From Candidatus Fraserbacteria bacterium (GTDB lineage: Bacteria > Bipolaricaulota > Bipolaricaulia > RBG-16-55-9), in assembly GCA_037443265.1 (NCBI GenBank), contig JBBIOR010000008.1, forward strand, positions 1 to 27,893: a DNA stretch of 27,893 bases, written 5' to 3'. The position numbers were made by a program, and so were the translations under genes. Below are positions 3,876 through 15,839 of the stretch, in pieces (the first letter of the stretch is position 1; every line of letters starts with the position of its first letter). Below the pieces are notes generated by a model that did not search any database, was not told the DNA's origin, and saw only the letters and a list, made by a program, of their open reading frames with translations.

Positions 3876-5642
3876 ATGAGAGCGCTCATCCTCGCCGGCC
3901 TCAGCCTCATCTCCGTCCCCTTGAGCTCTTATGCCCTACCCAACGAGGTGCAATACGCCATCGACGCGGAGCTCGATACGCAAAAGAACGTCATCGTTGG
4001 GAGAGAGATCGTTCAGTTCACCAATCGAACGGGACACGCTCTCGAAGAGCTATATTTTCACGTCTATCCCAATGCCTTTAAGCGCGACTCCAACAGCCAG
4101 TATCAACGCGATCTCCAAAGAATGGTCGGAATTCGAGATCTAAATCGCATCTACGCCGACCCAAACGACGATGCGTTCATGGAGATTGTAAGCATCACCA
4201 GCGCTGGCCGTCCGCTGAGTTTTTCTATGGAAGACACCCTCTTGACCGTCCAGCTACCGGAACCGTTGGCAGATGACGAGCCAATTGAACTGGCCATCGA
4301 GTTCATCTACGATCTTATGGAAGTCCCCCCCGAGGGGCGCATGGCGGCGACTCTAGCCATCCGCAGCGGACATCGAAACGGCGTCTACACCATCGCCCTC
4401 TGGTACCCCAGGCTGGCCGTCTATGATGAGGCCGGCTGGCACCTTGAGCCCTATAGCTACTTAGGAGAGTTCTACAGCGATTTCGCGGATTATCTCGTCC
4501 GGCTGAGTGTGCCTATGGGCTTGCTAGTGGGGGCCACCGGAACCCTGCAGCTTGAGGTAGAAGCCCCCCCGAGGAAGATCCTCAGCTTCCAAGCCGAGAA
4601 GGTTCATGATTTCGCTTGGGTGGCCAGCGCCCGCTATCAAGCGAAAGAGCTTCCGTGGGAGGGGATCACGGTCCGCGCGCTCTTTTTCGATCAAGCCGCG
4701 CTGGCCGATAGAGCTCTCGAGGCTCTGCGCTTCTTCAGCGAAGAGTTCGGCCGCTATGCCTATCCCGTCTTTACGGTCGCCCAAGTCGAGGCCGGAGGGG
4801 GCATGGAATACCCGGCCATCGTGATGATCGGGCAGGGCACCGAGCGCGAGATCGCCCATGAGATCGCCCATCAATGGTGGTATGGGGCCGTGGGCAATAA
4901 TGAGTTTGACGAGGCCTGGCTCGATGAAGGATTTACGACCTTCTCCGAAGAGCGTTATCTCATCGAGCAGCTCGGTTACCCGGAGGACTTGGCTCGTAGT
5001 TCGCTGCGCTTCCATGAGCCGGGTGAGGCCGTGCTCCAGCCGGCCTCTCACTATTCTTCGCTCTCGAGCTATGCCGCCGCCGTCTACACCAAGGCCTCGG
5101 GCATCTTGTGGATGCTCCGCGGGCTCTTGGGCCAAGAGACGTTCGATACGATCCTTCAAGAGTATTACAAGCGCTTTCAATTCAAAAATGCCACCACCCG
5201 CGATTTCGCAGCACTAGCGGAGGAGATCAGTGGGCAAGAACTCGATTGGTTCTTCGACCAGTGGCTGCGTACCACCAAGACGCTCGATTTCTCTATTGCC
5301 GAGGTGCGCTCGACTTCCCTGGGAGATGGGCGCTATCGCCATGCGATCGCGCTCGAGCGTCGCGGCGAGGCGATCATGCCTGTGGCCATCCAGCTCAGAT
5401 ATTCCAATGGCAAGACCCAACAGATCCACTGGGATGGACAGGCCACAAGAGCGGAGTTTGTCTTAGAGGCCGATGCGCCGCTTCAGCGAGTCATCATCGA
5501 TCCAGAGCGCATCATTTTGGAAGAGGACCGCTCGAACAACAGCTGGGCCGAGAGGGCGGCGCGACTCCTGGAACGTTTTTTATGGGGATTGGCAGCTGTC
5601 TTGGGCTCTCTCTGGTTGGCGAGGCGCCGTGCCGCGCCCTAA
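3876..5642 (+). CDS. M1 family Zn metallo-aminopeptidase, exported, with C-terminal membrane tail
   Basis: Signal peptide; GGMEY exopeptidase motif; HEIAHQWW followed by WLDEG (HExxH-x18-E); YTKA; C-terminal hydrophobic helix followed by RRR. Confidence 0.92.
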   Translation: MRALILAGLSLISVPLSSYALPNEVQYAIDAELDTQKNVIVGREIVQFTNRTGHALEELYFHVYPNAFKRDSNSQYQRDLQRMVGIRDLNRIYADPNDDAFMEIVSITSAGRPLSFSMEDTLLTVQLPEPLADDEPIELAIEFIYDLMEVPPEGRMAATLAIRSGHRNGVYTIALWYPRLAVYDEAGWHLEPYSYLGEFYSDFADYLVRLSVPMGLLVGATGTLQLEVEAPPRKILSFQAEKVHDFAWVASARYQAKELPWEGITVRALFFDQAALADRALEALRFFSEEFGRYAYPVFTVAQVEAGGGMEYPAIVMIGQGTEREIAHEIAHQWWYGAVGNNEFDEAWLDEGFTTFSEERYLIEQLGYPEDLARSSLRFHEPGEAVLQPASHYSSLSSYAAAVYTKASGILWMLRGLLGQETFDTILQEYYKRFQFKNATTRDFAALAEEISGQELDWFFDQWLRTTKTLDFSIAEVRSTSLGDGRYRHAIALERRGEAIMPVAIQLRYSNGKTQQIHWDGQATRAEFVLEADAPLQRVIIDPERIILEEDRSNNSWAERAARLLERFLWGLAAVLGSLWLARRRAAP

Positions 5643-6007
5643 GGCAGGCTGGGCTCTCTCGCCATGATGCGATTCTGCTCATCCACCCAGATGATCTTCG
5701 GCTGAAACAAGGCCACTTCGTCCTCTTCCAGATGGACAAAGCTCAGGATGATCACGGGGTCTCCGATCTCGCCCCAGCGCGCCGCGGCCCCATTGAGAAT
5801 GATCTCCCCGGAGCCGGCCCGGCCGGGAATGGCATACGTCTCCAGCCGCGAGCCGTTGTTGATGTTGACGACCTGGACTCTCTCATAGCTATAAATGCCT
5901 GCAGCCTCCATCAGCTGGCGGTCGACGGTGAGGCTTCCTTCATAGTCGACATTCTTGCCCGTGATCCGAGCTCTATGAATCTTTGATTTTAAAAGCTCCA
6001 GGCGCAT
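5639..6007 (-). CDS. panD: aspartate 1-decarboxylase
   Basis: KSKIHRA, YEG|SLTVD autocleavage site, NNGSRLETY, LNGAAAR; 122 aa. Confidence 0.97.
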   Translation of the reverse strand: MRLELLKSKIHRARITGKNVDYEGSLTVDRQLMEAAGIYSYERVQVVNINNGSRLETYAIPGRAGSGEIILNGAAARWGEIGDPVIILSFVHLEEDEVALFQPKIIWVDEQNRIMAREPSLP

Positions 6008-6036: not shown

Positions 6037-6117
6037 ATGATACTCTGAAACCCCTGCTCAGGCAAGCTTTCTCCGCTTTGCCAAGAGGCTGGCCAATGTG
6101 ATAGCATGGGATGCTAT
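6037..6117. promoter_or_regulatory. divergent promoters panD / aminotransferase with palindromic operator candidate
   Basis: Minus: TTGCCT (6065-6060), 17 nt, TATCAT (6042-6037). Plus: TTGCCA (6078-6083), 18 nt, TG-extended TAGCAT (6102-6107), overlapped by the perfect inverted repeat ATAGCAT-GGG-ATGCTAT (6101-6117). Confidence 0.5.
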
Positions 6118-6144
6118 TGTCGCTATGATGAAAGGAGACCTCAC

Positions 6145-7473
6145 ATGAAAAGCCCACTAGTTCACAAGCAGAAAGCCCAGCGTTCCACACCCCGCGAGCC
6201 GGGTCCGAAGTCCAAGGAGATTTTCGAGCGCAAGGAGAGAGTCGTGGCGCGAGCGATCTCCCCTCTTGCGCCCTTTATCATGGCCGAGGGCCGGGGAGTC
6301 ACAATCAAAGACGTCGACGGCCAGGAATATTTAGATTTCACCGGCGGCTGGGGGTGTCTGAACGTGGGCCACAATCACCCCAAAGTCGTACGCGCCGTCC
6401 AAGAGCAAGCCTCAAAATACATCCACACCGACTGCAGTGTGGTGATGTACGAGCCCTACATTGAGCTGGCCGAGCGTTTAATAGAGTACGCGCCGGGTGT
6501 GCGCCCCAAGAGAGTCATTTTCTTTAACAGCGGGGCCGAGGCGGTAGAAAACGCCGTCAAAATTGCCCGTTATTTCACAAGGCGCCGCGCCATCGTCGTC
6601 TTCGAGGGGGCCTTCCACGGCCGGACTCTTCTCACCATGACCATGACTCATAAAGCCATCCCCTACAAAGCCCACTTCGGCCCCTTGGCTCCCGATATTT
6701 ATCGGGTCCCCTTCCCCAACCCCTATCGCAACCCCATGAGCTTCTCCGCCTGGGAGAAGCACCTTTTAACCCTCGTGGCTCCGGAGGAGATTGCAGCCGT
6801 GGTGATCGAGCCCATCCAGGGCGAGGGGGGTTTTCTAGTCCCCTCCGAGGGCTTTCTGCCTGAGCTTCGCCGATTCTGCGATGCCCACGGAATTGTGCTC
6901 GTAGCCGACGAGGTGCAATCCGGGATGGGGCGTACCGGGAGATTCTTTGCCTCGGAGCACTTTCAGATCGAGCCGGATCTCATCTGCCTGGGAAAGTCTC
7001 TGGCCTCCGGGCTGCCTTTAAGCGGCGTGCTGGGTGCGGCTGAGATTGTCGATAGCGTGCCGGATAGCGGCCTCGGCGGTACGTTCGTGGGGAACCCCAT
7101 CGCCTGCGCAGCGGCTTTGGCCGTGATCGACGTCATCGAAGAAGAGAGGCTACTTGAGCGTGCCGTGCAGTTGGGTTCCCTCCTCGTACAGCGTTTCCAC
7201 AAGATGCAAGAGAAATATGATCTCATTGGAGATGTGCGCGGGCTGGGGGCCATGCAGGCCATTGAACTCGTCAAGGATCGCCAGACGAAGGAGCCTGCCA
7301 GCGAGGAGACGGCCCAGATCATTCAGCAGACGCTCCGGCAGGGCGTCCTTCTGGCGAAGGCCGGACTCTACAGCAATGTGATCCGCATGCTCATTCCGCT
7401 TGTGACGAGCGAAGAGGAGCTGAACGAAGGACTAGACGTGCTGGAGGACGCACTGGAGGGGATCGCGTCCTAA
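6145..7473 (+). CDS. gabT: class III PLP aminotransferase, 4-aminobutyrate--2-oxoglutarate transaminase-like
   Basis: NSGAEAVENAVK, AFHGRT, IEPIQGEGG, DEVQSGMGRTG, LGKS (PLP Lys), GGTFVGNP. Start moved from 6106 to ATG 6145, which follows an AAAGGAG SD. Confidence 0.85.
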   Translation: MKSPLVHKQKAQRSTPREPGPKSKEIFERKERVVARAISPLAPFIMAEGRGVTIKDVDGQEYLDFTGGWGCLNVGHNHPKVVRAVQEQASKYIHTDCSVVMYEPYIELAERLIEYAPGVRPKRVIFFNSGAEAVENAVKIARYFTRRRAIVVFEGAFHGRTLLTMTMTHKAIPYKAHFGPLAPDIYRVPFPNPYRNPMSFSAWEKHLLTLVAPEEIAAVVIEPIQGEGGFLVPSEGFLPELRRFCDAHGIVLVADEVQSGMGRTGRFFASEHFQIEPDLICLGKSLASGLPLSGVLGAAEIVDSVPDSGLGGTFVGNPIACAAALAVIDVIEEERLLERAVQLGSLLVQRFHKMQEKYDLIGDVRGLGAMQAIELVKDRQTKEPASEETAQIIQQTLRQGVLLAKAGLYSNVIRMLIPLVTSEEELNEGLDVLEDALEGIAS

Positions 7474-7482
7474 GCTTACGGC

Positions 7483-7570
7483 AAAAGAGGGCCAGGCAGG
7501 CTGCTGGGAAAAAGCCACGCCGGAGGTGGGGGCGTGGAGAAAAACCCAGACAGCCGAACCGAGCCCTCCC
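7483..7570 (-). ncRNA. candidate structured small RNA (rod-like, anti-SD apical loop)
   Basis: Nested stems 7487-7492/7563-7568, 7499-7508/7545-7555 (1-nt bulge), 7515-7521/7531-7537. TATAAT at 7584-7579 just upstream on the minus strand; 3' UUUU; extra G.U pairs favour the minus strand. Confidence 0.5.
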
Positions 7571-7611
7571 AAAATTTTATTATAGCTCCAGCCAGTCCAA
7601 TTCTGACAGGC

Positions 7612-8676
7612 TTATAGCCATCTCTTTCGCCGGAAGTAGAAGAGCATGGAGAGGGCCAGCAGGACCATGACCCCCAAGACGGCAAAGTATCCCCAGCGCC
7701 ACTTGAGCTCCGGCATATATTCGAAATTCATCCCATAGACGCCCGCGATGAATGTGAGCGGAATGAAGATCGTGGCGATGATGGTAAGCACCTTCATGAT
7801 CTCGTTCATCCGATGGCTGAGGCTGGATAGATAAATATCGAGCATGCCCGAGATCATATCCCGAAACGTCTCGAGGGCGTCGATGACTTGAATCGTGTGA
7901 TCATAGACGTCTCGCAGATAGATTCGGGTCGGCTCCCCAAAGAGCGAAGACTCTCCGCGATGGAGCGCGCTGATCACCTCGCGCAGCGGCCAGATCGATC
8001 TTCTTAAAAAGATCATCTCCCGCTTGAGATGCTGGATCTCCTGAAGTGTCTGAGAGCTGGGGCTCTCTACCAGCTCCTCGTGGAGCGCTTCCATTCGATC
8101 ACCCAGTCTCTCTAAGATGATAAAATAGTGATCGACAATGGCGTCGATCAACGCATAGGCCAGATAATCCGCGCCCAGCTTACGGATGCGACCCTTCCCG
8201 CTTCTAATCCGCTCGCGGATGGGATCGAAGACATCTCCCACCCTCTCCTGGAAGGAGAGCACGAAATTTCGGCCTAAGATCAAGCTGATTTGCTCATCTT
8301 CTGTTTCAGACTGCCCTTCGTGGTCGTTCAGCATGCGAAGCACGATGAAGATGTGATCGCCGTAGTCTTCCAGCTTGGGGCGCTGGCCGGTGCTCAAGAT
8401 GTCTTCCAAGACCAGAGGGTGCAGGCCGAAGTGTCTTCCGAGGGATTCAATCACCTCCACTTGATGGAGGCCGTCGACGTTGATCCAGGTCACCGTGGGC
8501 GCCTCGCGAAAGGGGAAGCATTCTTCGACGGAGCGGACTTCCCTCTCCTCAAGATGCGTCTCGTCGTAGCCGATGAGCGTAATTTTGACCCTCTCGGCCT
8601 TCTTCTCCCCAATGTGGATCAGGGTTCCTGGCGAAAGCCCGGCTTTTTTGGAGCGCCTTCGGACGAATTTGGGCAT
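7612..8676 (-). CDS. corA: magnesium/cobalt transporter CorA
   Basis: GLSPGTLIHIG, WINVDGLH, GLHPLVLEDI..TGQRPKLEDY, C-terminal two TM helices with YGMNF signature and MPEL. True start ATG 8676 after AAGGGGGA SD (354 aa). Confidence 0.96.
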   Translation of the reverse strand: MPKFVRRRSKKAGLSPGTLIHIGEKKAERVKITLIGYDETHLEEREVRSVEECFPFREAPTVTWINVDGLHQVEVIESLGRHFGLHPLVLEDILSTGQRPKLEDYGDHIFIVLRMLNDHEGQSETEDEQISLILGRNFVLSFQERVGDVFDPIRERIRSGKGRIRKLGADYLAYALIDAIVDHYFIILERLGDRMEALHEELVESPSSQTLQEIQHLKREMIFLRRSIWPLREVISALHRGESSLFGEPTRIYLRDVYDHTIQVIDALETFRDMISGMLDIYLSSLSHRMNEIMKVLTIIATIFIPLTFIAGVYGMNFEYMPELKWRWGYFAVLGVMVLLALSMLFYFRRKRWL

Positions 8677-8694
8677 GGTGATCCCCCTTGAAGG

Positions 8695-8735
8695 TGCTAG
8701 GGGGACCCCCCGGCCGCGGAGGAGTCCCCCTAGCA
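8695..8735 (-). promoter_or_regulatory. intercistronic hairpin between hup and corA
   Basis: Perfect 12-bp inverted repeat TGCTAGGGGGAC/GTCCCCCTAGCA, extended to 17 bp by G.U pairs on the minus strand, 7-nt loop, no U-tract. Confidence 0.75.
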
Positions 8736-8764
8736 GGTGCGAAAGATTGCGGTCAGCCCGAAGC

Positions 8765-9043
8765 TTAACCCCTAGCCAGGGCCTTCTTGAAGGTGGTGCT
8801 GGGGCGGAACTTGGGCACCCAGCGGGCGGGCACTTGAATGGGCTGCTTCGTGCGGGGGTTGATGCGGCGTGCCGCCTTCCGCTGGTATGCCTCAAAGGTG
8901 CCGAACCCCGTCAGCCTCACCTTCTCATTGCGCTGGCAGGATTCCAGAATCAGTGACAGCATGGCATCTAGGGTCTCTCCGGCCTTCCGCTTGGGGAGTT
9001 GGGTCTTTCGGGCGAGCTGCTCTACGAATTCTTGCTTGTTCAT
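8765..9043 (-). CDS. hup: DNA-binding protein HU
   Basis: MNKQE, V.LTGFGTF, R.ARRINPRT...I..PA..VPKFRPS..FK; 92 aa; AGGGAGGAG SD. Confidence 0.95.
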   Translation of the reverse strand: MNKQEFVEQLARKTQLPKRKAGETLDAMLSLILESCQRNEKVRLTGFGTFEAYQRKAARRINPRTKQPIQVPARWVPKFRPSTTFKKALARG

Positions 9044-13148: not shown

Positions 13149-15839
13149 TCAGATCTCCGAGACGGGCATAGGCTGCCCAATGTGATATCCCTGGGCGTAG
13201 TCCACACCCAGCGCGCGCACCCGCTGCAGGGTAGCCTCATCCTCCACTTCTTCGGCGATGGTGGCCTTCCCCAGCCCCTTTGCCAGCGCGGCGATCGCCT
13301 GGACGATCTGCTGGTTCTGCGGGTCTTCTGCCAGGTGGCGAATGAAGCTGCCGTCGATCTTCAGGTAGTCCACCGACAGGTGCCGCAGGTAGTACAGCGA
13401 GGAGAAGCCGATGCCGAAGTCGTCCAGCGCTAGCTGGCAGCCCCGGGCCCGCAGGGCCTCTATACAGCGGAGCGTCCGTGCCATATCCGCCACGGCGGCG
13501 CTTTCGGTGATCTCCAGCACCAGCTTGGCCGAAGCGACCTGCGCCTCCTCGAGCATCCGCACGATGGCCCGGATTGCCCTGTCGTCCGCGATGGTCTTGC
13601 CCGAGAGGTTGACGTGCACGCGCAGATTGCGACGGCTGATCAGCATGAGCGCCTGCTGGTAGATCCAGATATCGATCTGCTGGATGAGGCCCAGGCGCTC
13701 GGCGATGGCCAGGAAGGCAGCGGGCTCCACTACCTGCGCCCTCTGCGGCAGCCGAACGAGCAGTTCGTACTGGGTGACTTCGCCCCGGCGCAGGTCGAGG
13801 ATCGGCTGAGCGTAGGCGAGAAGCTGCTCCTGCGCCAGCGCGTCGGTGAGCCGCTTAGCCCAGCCGGCACGATCCCGGAACCGCTCGCGCCAGGCCGGGT
13901 CCGGCGAAAAGACCACCGCCCGGTCGCCGCCTTGCGCTTTGGCGGCATAGAGGCTGAGATCGGCCGCCGCCAACAGCTCGTCGACGCTAAGACCGTGCTG
14001 GGGGAAGATGGCCACCCCGCAGCTGGCGGTGAGCCGCACCGGTCGGCCCGCGATCAGAGTCACCTGTTCACGCACCGCAGCCAAGATGCGTTCGGCCACG
14101 GAAAGGGCAAAATCTTCCTCCACCGGCACCACCATGACCCCGAACTCGTCCCCGCCCAGGCGGGCCAGGAGCTCACCCTCCCGCAATCGATCGCGCACGG
14201 CCCGGGCGACGGCCCGTAGCAGATCGTCTCCGGCCCGATGCCCCAGACGGTCGTTGATCTCTTTGAAGTTGTCCAGATCGAAAAAGAGCAGGCTGCCGCT
14301 CTGGCCAGCTCGCTGCGCCTGCCCGATCTGGCGCGACAGCTCCTCCTGAAAGCGATGCCGGTTGTAGACCCCCGTGAGCACGTCGTGATTGGCCAGGTAG
14401 TGCACGTCTGCCTCAAAGCGCTTGCGCGCGGTGATGTCCTCCACACCCCCCTCATAATAGGCGGGACGGCCGGAAGCATCCTGCACCACGCGGGCTGAAT
14501 CCCGCACCCAGATGAGCGTGCCGTCGAATCTTCTCCACTGCACCTCGAAGCCCACGACAACCTCTTCCCGGTCCATGAGCTCTTGCCAACGGGCACGGTC
14601 CTCTGGGTTGGCGTAGAGAGCAGCCGCGTTGGTCGCAAGTAGCGTTGCCCGATCCGGGTAGCCCAGCATCCGGACCAGAGTCTTATTCACATCTAGGAGC
14701 CGGCCCTGGGGCGTGGAGCGGTACAACCCCACGGGGATCGCCTCAAAGAGCTGGCGGTTCCTCCAGTGCTCTAGGGCCCGCGCGATAGCATTGGCCGTGA
14801 TCCCGGCTAGAAGCTGGGCAAAGCGCATCTGATCCGAGCTGATCGGCTGTGGCGAGAAGAAATCCGCAACCAAAACGCCGATGGGCTGCTCCCCGGCTAT
14901 CATGGGCAGGTTCAGGCAGGCCTGAACCCCGGCCTGCCGCACCGGCTCGGGCACAGCAAAGGGCGCCTCCGGCTGCGTGTGGTCCTCGTAGAGGGGCTGG
15001 CGCTTGTGTAGCACCCACGCCGGGCCGTTGCTCTCCGACGGCTGCAGGGGCAGCTGGAGGCGGCCGACGTGGGCCTCGCTCCACCCCCATCCCGCCACCA
15101 GCTCCAGGAAGGTGCCCGAAGGATCTATGACCAGCAGGCTGAGGGCATCAGCCCGCAACGACTCCCGCAGCACGGCAAAGCTCGCCTTCCCGATCTCCTC
15201 CAGCGAGACTAGCCCCAGCAGGGTCTGGGCCAGACGAGCGGCCGTCTCCTCTTCTTCGCGGCGGGCCGCCTCCAGCCGGACGTGAAGCTGCGCCCGCTCG
15301 ATGGCCACCCCCAGCGTCTCGGCCACTAGCTCCAGCAGCGCCAATGTCTCCTCAGAAAGCGGCTCTGGGACCGGCTTAGCCAGATTTAATAGACCCAGCA
15401 CCCGCTCCCCCGCTCGCAGCGGGACGCTCACGTGCAGGTGTAAATTCCCAGTCTGCTCAGCCACCGTCGCGGGATCGGCCCCCGCCAGCGCCTGATGGAT
15501 GCGCTTCAGCCACTCGCACTTGACGATATTCACAGGCTCCTTGAGCTCTCCCTCGAGCAGCATCCGCTGGCAGGAGCACGGCGTCCAGCGCAGGGCGGCC
15601 CACTCATCGGCGGCAAGGGCAGCAGGAAATCCATGTGCGGCCGCACAAGTGAAGCGGCCCTCTTCGTCGACAAGGAAGATCCAGCCGGTCTTCAAGCCCA
15701 GTAGCTTCATGACGAGCGCGAGGGCTGAGTCGAGCATGGGTTGAAGCTCGATCTGGCGGTTGAGGTGCTCAGCCATGGTGCGTAGTACCTCTAGCTGGTC
15801 TAACTGGAGGCGGGAACTGCGCGGGGCAGCGGGCATCAT
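13149..15839 (-). CDS. GAF-GAF-PAS-GGDEF-EAL diguanylate cyclase/phosphodiesterase
   Basis: Two GAF-like regions, PAS (GLYRST..GR), HD.LTG.YNR, DLDNFK.IND.LGH..GD, intact GGDEF, ELL variant of EAL, LEITE, DDFGIGFSS, KIDGSF, QGY. Confidence 0.93.
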   Translation of the reverse strand: MMPAAPRSSRLQLDQLEVLRTMAEHLNRQIELQPMLDSALALVMKLLGLKTGWIFLVDEEGRFTCAAAHGFPAALAADEWAALRWTPCSCQRMLLEGELKEPVNIVKCEWLKRIHQALAGADPATVAEQTGNLHLHVSVPLRAGERVLGLLNLAKPVPEPLSEETLALLELVAETLGVAIERAQLHVRLEAARREEEETAARLAQTLLGLVSLEEIGKASFAVLRESLRADALSLLVIDPSGTFLELVAGWGWSEAHVGRLQLPLQPSESNGPAWVLHKRQPLYEDHTQPEAPFAVPEPVRQAGVQACLNLPMIAGEQPIGVLVADFFSPQPISSDQMRFAQLLAGITANAIARALEHWRNRQLFEAIPVGLYRSTPQGRLLDVNKTLVRMLGYPDRATLLATNAAALYANPEDRARWQELMDREEVVVGFEVQWRRFDGTLIWVRDSARVVQDASGRPAYYEGGVEDITARKRFEADVHYLANHDVLTGVYNRHRFQEELSRQIGQAQRAGQSGSLLFFDLDNFKEINDRLGHRAGDDLLRAVARAVRDRLREGELLARLGGDEFGVMVVPVEEDFALSVAERILAAVREQVTLIAGRPVRLTASCGVAIFPQHGLSVDELLAAADLSLYAAKAQGGDRAVVFSPDPAWRERFRDRAGWAKRLTDALAQEQLLAYAQPILDLRRGEVTQYELLVRLPQRAQVVEPAAFLAIAERLGLIQQIDIWIYQQALMLISRRNLRVHVNLSGKTIADDRAIRAIVRMLEEAQVASAKLVLEITESAAVADMARTLRCIEALRARGCQLALDDFGIGFSSLYYLRHLSVDYLKIDGSFIRHLAEDPQNQQIVQAIAALAKGLGKATIAEEVEDEATLQRVRALGVDYAQGYHIGQPMPVSEI

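Follow-up and report, generated by a model that had tools for sequence, protein, structure and literature searches.

What kind of element occupies the narrow gap between two convergent genes of a bacterium from a barely cultured phylum? The window analyzed here is the whole stretch of 27,893 nucleotides from contig JBBIOR010000008.1 of Candidatus Fraserbacteria (assembly GCA_037443265.1). Between its genes corA and a gabT-like aminotransferase, at positions 7483 to 7570, the minus strand can fold into a long rod, and the locus raises the question of whether this rod is the gene of a small RNA (sRNA) or only the end of its neighbors' transcripts. A first-pass annotation had proposed a single sRNA displaying an anti-Shine-Dalgarno (anti-SD) loop. 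We found instead that this genome has nine copies of the element, the rod among them, and that 35 genomes together have 182 copies. Their common hairpin appears to be under selection for its structure and, judged by covariance searches, forms a new RNA family that is not listed in Rfam 15. The window copy is the minimal, that is, the smallest member of this multi-copy family. As to function, a stand-alone, ~88-nt trans-acting RNA gene whose loop would mask GGAGG Shine-Dalgarno (SD) sites is the reading that we favor tentatively, as a possibility just short of probable. In the following, the genome of the window (an assembly of 1.69 Mb in 44 contigs, completeness 88%) is called G000 and the window contig C8; other C, G, and L numbers denote contigs, genomes, and loci of the analysis.

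The rod and its family

The fold was predicted with RNAfold. The minus strand from 7570 to 7483 showed a minimum free energy of -51.2 kcal/mol, compared with -31.1 +/- 3.3 kcal/mol for 200 shuffled sequences (z -6.19), none of which was as stable. The plus strand, treated in the same manner, folded slightly worse (-48.5 kcal/mol, z -5.83). From the bottom upward, the rod begins with an outer stem (8+3 bp), continues with a 10-bp stem that contains one bulged U, and is topped, beyond an internal loop UUUUUCU/CUUUUU, by a 7-bp GC stem with a 9-nt loop CCCACCUCC. Within this loop, the 7 nt CACCUCC are identical to the 3′ end of the genome's own 16S ribosomal RNA (...GGATCACCTCCTTTCT, contig C19). 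Thus, the layout proposed in the first-pass annotation was reproduced in full: TATAAT (7584-7579), 8 nt, and an 88-nt RNA (7570-7483) follow one another on the minus strand, folding of both strands gave exactly the described rod on the minus strand, and the anti-SD core in the loop matches the 16S 3′ end of the same genome. The parts of the element are as follows.

7601..7608, minus strand: -35-like element TGTCAGAA, 16 nt 5′ of the -10 box, a weak match to TTGACA
7579..7584, minus strand: -10 box TATAAT, 8 nt ahead of the first base of the rod
7483..7570, minus strand: predicted small RNA of 88 nt, the entire rod plus U tail (RNAfold; ortholog in G001; covariance models R1 and R2)
7493..7559, minus strand: core hairpin of the family, matched by model R2 with 82.5 bits
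7558..7569, minus strand: outer closing stem, 5′ strand GGAGGGCU.GGU (RNAfold; counterpart in paralogs (G)AGRGCUUGG)
7486..7497, minus strand: outer closing stem, 3′ strand, which runs into the U-tract UCUUUU (7483-7488); terminator-like
7538..7544, minus strand: U-rich internal loop, 5′ side UUUUUCU (RNAfold)
7509..7514, minus strand: U-rich internal loop, 3′ side CUUUUU (RNAfold)
7522..7530, minus strand: apical loop CCCACCUCC, anti-SD mimic (RNAfold; comparison with the 16S tail)

A BLAST-type search of G000 returned only the element itself, the next best match having an E value of 0.03 over 20 nt, and a repeat search found nothing at the window site. A syntenic ortholog lies between corA and the aminotransferase gene of G001, a genome of another genus, with 83% identity and a double change from C-G to U-A in the lower stem. 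Weak matches in three remoter genomes share a common core, composed of CAGGGUUUU, a stem, a loop with CCUCC, a stem, and UUUUUCCCAG. Covariance models were built from three copies (R1) and then from seven (R2), with the window copy as a seed sequence. As a seed member, the window copy scores 82.5 bits with R2, and the 45 non-seed copies score 28.6-62.8 bits. At E <= 0.1, R2 gave 182 matches, which cover all 35 genomes of the order with three to nine copies per genome and nine in G000:

C8:7493-7559, minus strand: the window element
C29:3964-4035, minus strand: family copy
C1:107745-107817, minus strand: family copy
C1:38671-38740, plus strand: family copy
C16:17777-17844, minus strand: family copy
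C6:42309-42378, minus strand: family copy
C3:13899-13974, plus strand: family copy
C10:47998-48054, minus strand: family copy
C9:8358-8408, minus strand: family copy

At E <= 1e-4, R2 matched 36 of the 151 genomes of the class, namely all 35 of the order and the sole genome of family f6, so that every match falls within families f1-f6. None of the 115 genomes of families f7-f11 was matched at this threshold, a result that doubles as a control for false positives. These searches suggest that the family is confined to one order and one neighboring family, in which the carriers that have a name are metagenome-assembled genomes (MAGs) of Bipolaricaulota/Acetothermia. When the class was scanned with a strict pattern, the family turned up in no more than 9 of 184 genomes; such a scan under-reports the family, for which the covariance model is needed. 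Across the genomes of 185,579 species, a strict pattern scan gave 65 loci, nearly all of them, going by record titles, in MAGs of Candidatus Bipolaricaulota, Acetothermia, Fraserbacteria, and "uncultured Thermotogae". The rest were one KSB1, one Latescibacterota, one Desulfovibrio, and three entries named "bacterium" or "uncultured bacterium".

The Rfam 15 covariance models gave no match at the gathering score in the entire window. Even at E <= 10, the best matches on 7460-7620 stayed at 13.5 and 10.3 bits, where the cut-offs are 42 and 43, and the elements of the relatives were likewise without Rfam match. Hence neither the strict nor the permissive search assigned the element to a known family, an outcome on which the first-pass annotation had made its proposal depend. 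The RNA of the signal recognition particle (SRP), RNase P RNA, and transfer-messenger RNA (tmRNA) were rejected as identities because these genes are located elsewhere in G000. The RNase P RNA and tmRNA genes lie on the same strand, ~220 nt apart, at C3:37049-37408(+) and 37630-37967(+). A 6S RNA was not found in G000, which is 88% complete. In the main texts of the available literature on Bipolaricaulota and Acetothermia, no regulatory RNA or such a family was found described.

Next, covariation was analyzed in 52 copies aligned to R2, which make up 49 distinct rows. Standard pairs occupied 91% of the cells, compared with 37-56% in slid controls, where the partners were moved by 1-3 columns. 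Double changes were observed at 12 of the 17 pairs, in 113 cells, and none of 500 shuffles attained the observed values. All six pairs of the upper stem covary. The three G-C pairs below the internal loop are almost invariant, with a switch from G-C to A-U in five rows, and an A.A mismatch is kept in 46 of the 49 rows, the window copy having U-A instead. On the 5′ side of the internal loop, all 52 copies have four or more U, and on its 3′ side 51 of the 52 have five or more U in a row. Of the 52 apical loops, 36 contain CCUCC and 44 contain CCUC. These data argue that the structure of the hairpin is under selection. The family is recognized in its lower part by a 10-bp stem with one bulge and an A.A mismatch and by a U-rich loop resting on three G-C pairs, and in its upper part by a covarying GC stem of 6-7 bp and an apical loop that usually carries RCCUCC, the core of the 16S tail. 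The structural conservation that the first-pass annotation had expected among relatives was therefore found throughout the order, with covariation. Its expectation of a conserved loop held in part: the anti-SD loop is indeed conserved (CCUCC in 36 of 52), but the U-rich internal loop, present in 52 of 52, is kept best.

The multiplicity of copies raises the possibility of a mobile repeat without RNA function, of the kind known as miniature inverted-repeat transposable elements (MITE) or repetitive extragenic palindromes (REP), in which the closing stem would be the terminal inverted repeat (GAGCTTGGCC...GGCCAAGCTC). The copies are in fact numerous and intergenic, the inverted-repeat end recurs, and the element is missing from the gap between corA and the aminotransferase gene in the genome G006. 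However, copies within one genome have no BLAST-detectable similarity and keep their structure through compensatory changes, the G.U pairs and promoters show a strand bias, and paralogs are syntenic across genera. Moreover, G006 shows a 5′-truncated remnant rather than a clean empty site, and no consistent flanking duplication was seen by eye. We therefore consider a mobile repeat very improbable. A plain sequence repeat was ruled out, as the copies of G000 are alike in structure and motifs, not in sequence. With regard to the dispersed repeat that the first-pass annotation had named as a threat to its proposal, the element is multi-copy, but the covarying copies share no sequence and thus behave as paralogous RNA genes.

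The hairpin is carried by diverse scaffolds. Architectures among the eight further copies of G000 range from a rod and a three-way junction that includes a GNRA-like hairpin to a double anti-SD hairpin and a form resembling transfer RNA (tRNA), and most of these copies have a ACCUCCUU leader. Many of the larger members have a scaffold that resembles a cloverleaf, in which the U-loop hairpin takes the position of the variable arm, together with a T-loop hairpin (GGUUCGAnUCC). When the hairpin was removed in silico, ARAGORN in relaxed mode predicted a sense-strand tRNA-like fold at 15 of 21 loci, as opposed to 1 of 21 with the hairpin in place. The idea that these are genuine tRNA genes carrying an insertion was rejected, since G000 has 40 ordinary tRNAs (Val-UAC included) and the anticodons of the tRNA-like scaffolds are inconsistent. 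A larger RNA of ~270 nt, observed in at least nine genomes, combines the family hairpin with a T-loop hairpin, is closed by GGGGAUGA.../...UCAUUCCC, and is followed by a strong terminator. It had no Rfam match and is neither RNase P RNA, tmRNA, nor SRP RNA. The loci concerned are given below.

tRNA-like members: L044, L049, L073, L074, L135, L113, L080, L038, L079, and others; G000 C10:~47960-48090, minus strand
~270-nt RNA: G000 C9:~8200-8560, minus strand; L088, L093, L094, L100, L108, L123, L142, L146

Transcribed strand, promoter motif, and gene context

Three kinds of evidence bear on the transcribed strand. First, the 52-copy alignment contains 43 G.U or U.G pairs against 10 A.C or C.A pairs. 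Second, among 58 non-redundant copies with full flanks, on which all counts of flanking motifs are based, an exact TATAAT occurs within 150 nt upstream in 16 of 58 on the sense strand and in 2 of 58 on the antisense strand, and in 0 of 58 downstream on either strand. Third, one class of paralogs is preceded, 104-185 nt upstream and on the same strand, by a c-di-GMP-I-GGC (cyclic diguanylate) aptamer in seven genomes of four families, as identified by cross-matched covariance searches:

G000:C3, G004:C244, G009:C15, G011:C61, G013:C8, G016:C10, G019:C72, same strand: copies preceded by the aptamer
G000 C3, plus strand: aptamer at 13678-13762, then family hairpin at 13899-13974

In G019 at least, no gene comes after the aptamer and hairpin on that strand. 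The arrangement in these genomes looks like a riboswitch-controlled non-coding RNA. The bias of G.U pairs, the strand bias of TATAAT, and the upstream riboswitches therefore all point to the minus strand of the window as the transcribed one. The opposite-strand reading, in which the loop would serve as an SD sequence and ACCUCCUU as that of a divergent gene, was rejected, as both the G.U and the promoter strand biases are contrary to it. As a side observation, c-di-GMP-I-GGC matches (E <= 1e-5) are unusually frequent in the order, being found in 33 of its 35 genomes, with up to 16 per genome and six in G000, and in none of 14 controls.

The upstream region was compared in seven minimal-type genes from five genomes: the window gene, its ortholog in G001, G000 C1:38671 with its orthologs in G001 and G006, and copies in G008 and G004. 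TATAAT is invariant in all seven, 8-10 nt ahead of the rod, and a further 16-17 nt upstream each of the seven has TGTCRRAA or TATCGAAA at a matching position. Each of the seven also has the rod plus a tail of the type GCCAAGCUCUUUCUUUU. On this evidence, the window copy looks like a complete small gene of ~88 nt. The TATAAT that the first-pass annotation had seen in one locus thus recurs at a fixed distance in orthologs and paralogs. In the window, TATAAT 8 nt upstream together with the weak -35-like TGTCAGAA would serve as the promoter, and the closing stem with its U-tract would serve as the terminator.

The neighboring genes of the window element are as follows.

7612..8895, minus strand: corA (Pfam CorA, E 1.4e-79), on the same strand as the rod and upstream of it
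6106..7473, plus strand: class-III aminotransferase, gabT-like (Pfam Aminotran_3, E 1.1e-127), convergent neighbor

The rod starts 41 nt past the corA stop codon, and the predicted 3′ end of the RNA lies 9 nt from the aminotransferase stop codon. The divergent neighbor of the aminotransferase gene is PanD, aspartate 1-decarboxylase, at 5639-6007(-), and this adjacency suggests that "gabT" may use beta-alanine rather than gamma-aminobutyric acid (GABA).

The closing stem GGAGGGCU/GGCCCUCU leads straight into UCUUUU, 41 nt past the corA stop, and has the form of an intrinsic terminator. Between the corA stop codon and the rod there is no second hairpin, and no other terminator follows corA. Because the rod lies 41 nt past the corA stop with no intervening hairpin, it should terminate corA. 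In the window, the rod would then also end corA transcription; most likely it doubles as the corA terminator, and perhaps it ends the convergent aminotransferase transcription too. Such a role can coexist with that of an sRNA. That the rod is a mere, bidirectional intrinsic terminator for both genes, with promoter-like and anti-SD letters arising by chance, seems quite improbable. The convergent gap, the stability of the rod on both strands (-51.2 and -48.5) followed by a U-tract, the lack of another terminator after corA, and the location of five of the nine G000 copies, in convergent gaps behind a gene of the same strand, are all in its favor. Nevertheless, the internal loop, A.A mismatch, and loop motif are conserved across 182 copies and are needless for a terminator, so that the element is, as the first-pass annotation had held, more elaborate than termination demands. 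Furthermore, two of the nine copies are antisense to both neighbors, TATAAT is invariant at a fixed distance, some copies are fed by riboswitches, and on the plus strand AAAA comes after the stem, ahead of any U.

The gene contexts of the nine G000 copies were assigned with crude calls of open reading frames. Besides the five copies downstream of a same-strand gene in convergent gaps, two are antisense between two plus-strand genes, one lies between co-directional genes, and one in a divergent gap. In other genomes, the neighbor genes of family copies are unrelated. Since the contexts vary and no downstream gene is needed, the hairpin is not a 5′-untranslated-region (5′-UTR) element, which argues for independent transcription. 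Likewise, a 5′-UTR or riboswitch identity was rejected, along with the opposite-strand reading, because the gene contexts misfit and, by eye, no start codon stands at proper spacing. Three paralogs are syntenic across genera: the window copy (in G001), C1:38671 (in G001 and G006), and the C6 copy (in G006). For two other paralogs, the synteny check matched only the element itself. No family copy was found near the corA orthologs of G005, G017, and G014.

Proposed function of the hairpin

The SD-complementary motif was counted in and around the 58 copies. The core hairpin contains CCTCC in 37 of 58 and GGAGG in 0 of 58. In the 5′ leader (-80 to -20), CCTCC occurs in 35 of 58, GGAGG in 9, ACCTCCT in 28, and AGGAGGT in 0, compared with 8 for CCTCC and 10 for GGAGG in a control region (-150 to -81). 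Some loops and leaders match the 16S tail over up to 10-11 nt. The window copy has no leader, and its anti-SD motif is in the loop only; this loop, CCCACCUCC, contains RCCUCC, which is frequent, not universal, in the family. In the mechanism that we tentatively favor, the exposed apical loop would pair with GGAGG SD sites of mRNAs and keep 30S subunits off, and the larger paralogs would do likewise with another ACCUCCU, single-stranded, in their 5′ leader. That the window RNA is transcribed, acts in trans, and finds its targets among SD sites is inferred. A duplex scan against ~1,370 gene starts, which were called only crudely, gave top matches that are not credible ribosome-binding sites, and a motif scan was equally uninformative for that reason.

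Several observations weigh against this mechanism. CCUCC is absent from 16 of the 52 loops, and even CCUC from 8, and the loop of the C10 copy in G000 is essentially CUAG. A loop identical to the 16S tail would offer little target specificity, and in the crude target scan neither corA nor the aminotransferase gene departs from the genome median score. An Hfq gene was not found in G000, which is only 88% complete. The -35 element of the window copy is weak, and a consensus scan, whose rules demand at least 4 of 6 matches for a -35 element and a terminator loop of no more than 8 nt, flagged neither a promoter nor a terminator at the 7483-7570 site. None of the sequencing runs listed as holding the window DNA is RNA. 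The covariation counts come from an alignment that was fitted to the model. In G006, which belongs to the genus of G001, the gap between corA and the aminotransferase gene is only 56 nt long and keeps a decayed, 5′-truncated remnant (L161, G006:C38, 1441-1498) with just the 3′ arm of the hairpin and the tail; accordingly, the window copy is dispensable and was lost in the G006 lineage. The corA match of G006 has two in-frame stops. Finally, the U-loop is invariant while the apical loops vary, so the common function may sit in the U-loop.

This last point leads to a somewhat unlikely, though serious, alternative, in which the U-loop on GGG/CCC with the A.A mismatch is a protein-binding or ribonucleoprotein module, and the RNAs act as decoys or scaffolds rather than by pairing with mRNAs. 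For example, a mimic of the 16S 3′ tail might titrate a factor that reads this tail, or the RNA might be a carrier for a protein. The U-loop and lower stem are the sole invariant parts (52 of 52 copies; G-C pairs in 49 of 49 rows), whereas the loops vary. Furthermore, one and the same hairpin occurs on rods, three-way junctions, tRNA-like cloverleaves, and the ~270-nt RNA, as is typical of a protein-binding module, and some leaders match the 16S tail over up to 11 nt. However, the neighbors are unrelated and offer no linked candidate for a partner gene, neither a TROVE (Rsr) nor an Hfq gene was found in G000, and the excess of CCUCC over GGAGG is read most simply as a pairing seed.

The same internal loop also recalls an ENE-type stability element, in which the U-loop would clamp an A-rich strand to form a U.A-U triple helix, the three G-C pairs being bound by A-minor contacts. 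Such a clamp would protect RNA 3′ ends or capture A-rich RNA in trans. U4-5 opposite U5, above GGG/CCC, is present in 52 of 52 copies, an arrangement that fits the published search definition (PMC7583470). Nonetheless, an A-rich partner strand, scored as a 7-mer with six or more A no farther than 100 nt away, accompanied only 1 of the 58 copies on the upstream side and 2 of the 58 on the downstream side, the 3′ ends are predicted to be rich in U and not in A, and no Rfam model matched; we regard this function as extremely improbable. A distinctly unlikely, wider idea is that of a portable module, an ENE-like clamp or protein site tipped with the 16S tail, which one bacterial order would have grafted onto varied scaffolds to form a system of ribosome-tail mimics for global tuning of translation, with one paralog under a c-di-GMP riboswitch.

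If the trans-acting sRNA that we favor is real, mimicry of the ribosomal RNA tail would be a widespread means of translation control outside the Firmicutes, in a lineage without a detected Hfq gene, and one paralog would link it to c-di-GMP signaling. Bipolaricaulota/Acetothermia are a deep-branching, barely cultured phylum, although a cultured Bipolaricaulota strain with RNA-seq has been described (bioRxiv 10.1101/2025.11.21.689855). A strongly covarying family with a clear sequence signature, 182 genes in 35 genomes, is ready for RNA databases and for MAG annotation.

Comparison with known systems

Similar to intrinsic terminators, the window copy has a GC-rich stem followed by a U-tract at a gene end in a convergent gap. 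In contrast to them, it comprises 88 nt, contains two internal loops and a loop motif that is conserved, and has a predicted promoter of its own and 182 covarying relatives. Some family members resemble YrlA/Y RNAs in having a T-loop hairpin and a cloverleaf-like scaffold, and the window copy has no tRNA-like part. In the tRNA-like members, the acceptor-like stem is made by pairing of the 5′ end with the 3′ end, which would be the reverse of the YrlA arrangement. An identity with Y RNA or YrlA was rejected, as G000 (88% complete) gave no TROVE (Rsr) match and Rfam no YrlA match.

In Firmicutes, RsaE/RoxS, LhrC, and the hairpins of RNAIII act independently of Hfq, pairing C-rich motifs with G-rich ribosome-binding sites. 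The present family differs from them in phylum and fold, and it carries the full 16S-tail core CACCUCC where those RNAs have UCCC or CCCC. In addition, its copy number is higher and its scaffolds are modular.

To our knowledge, the U-loop on G-C pairs is the first bacterial structure to fit the ENE search definition. As in the ENEs of the KSHV (Kaposi's sarcoma-associated herpesvirus) PAN and MALAT1 type, a U-rich internal loop rests directly on G-C pairs. However, known ENEs are eukaryotic, viral, or from transposons and rely on a poly(A) tail or on an A-tract that is encoded, and no A-tract lies by the family copies. By the published definition, an ENE is a stem-loop whose U-rich internal loop sits immediately on top of G-C pairs (PMC7583470).

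The csRNAs of streptococci have unpaired SD-complementary sequences and were taken to block translation initiation (PMC3091779). These cia-dependent RNAs (CcnA-E) are similar to the family in that each genome has several paralogous genes of ~90-150 nt, with their own promoter and terminator. The two groups share no sequence or structure homology, and the family has no Rfam match. The csRNA anti-SD sequence lies between two hairpins and is accompanied by an anti-AUG, whereas in the present family, for which no anti-start codon was noted, it occupies an apical loop (and, in larger paralogs, a 5′ leader too), and the hairpin is distinguished by its invariant U-rich internal loop.

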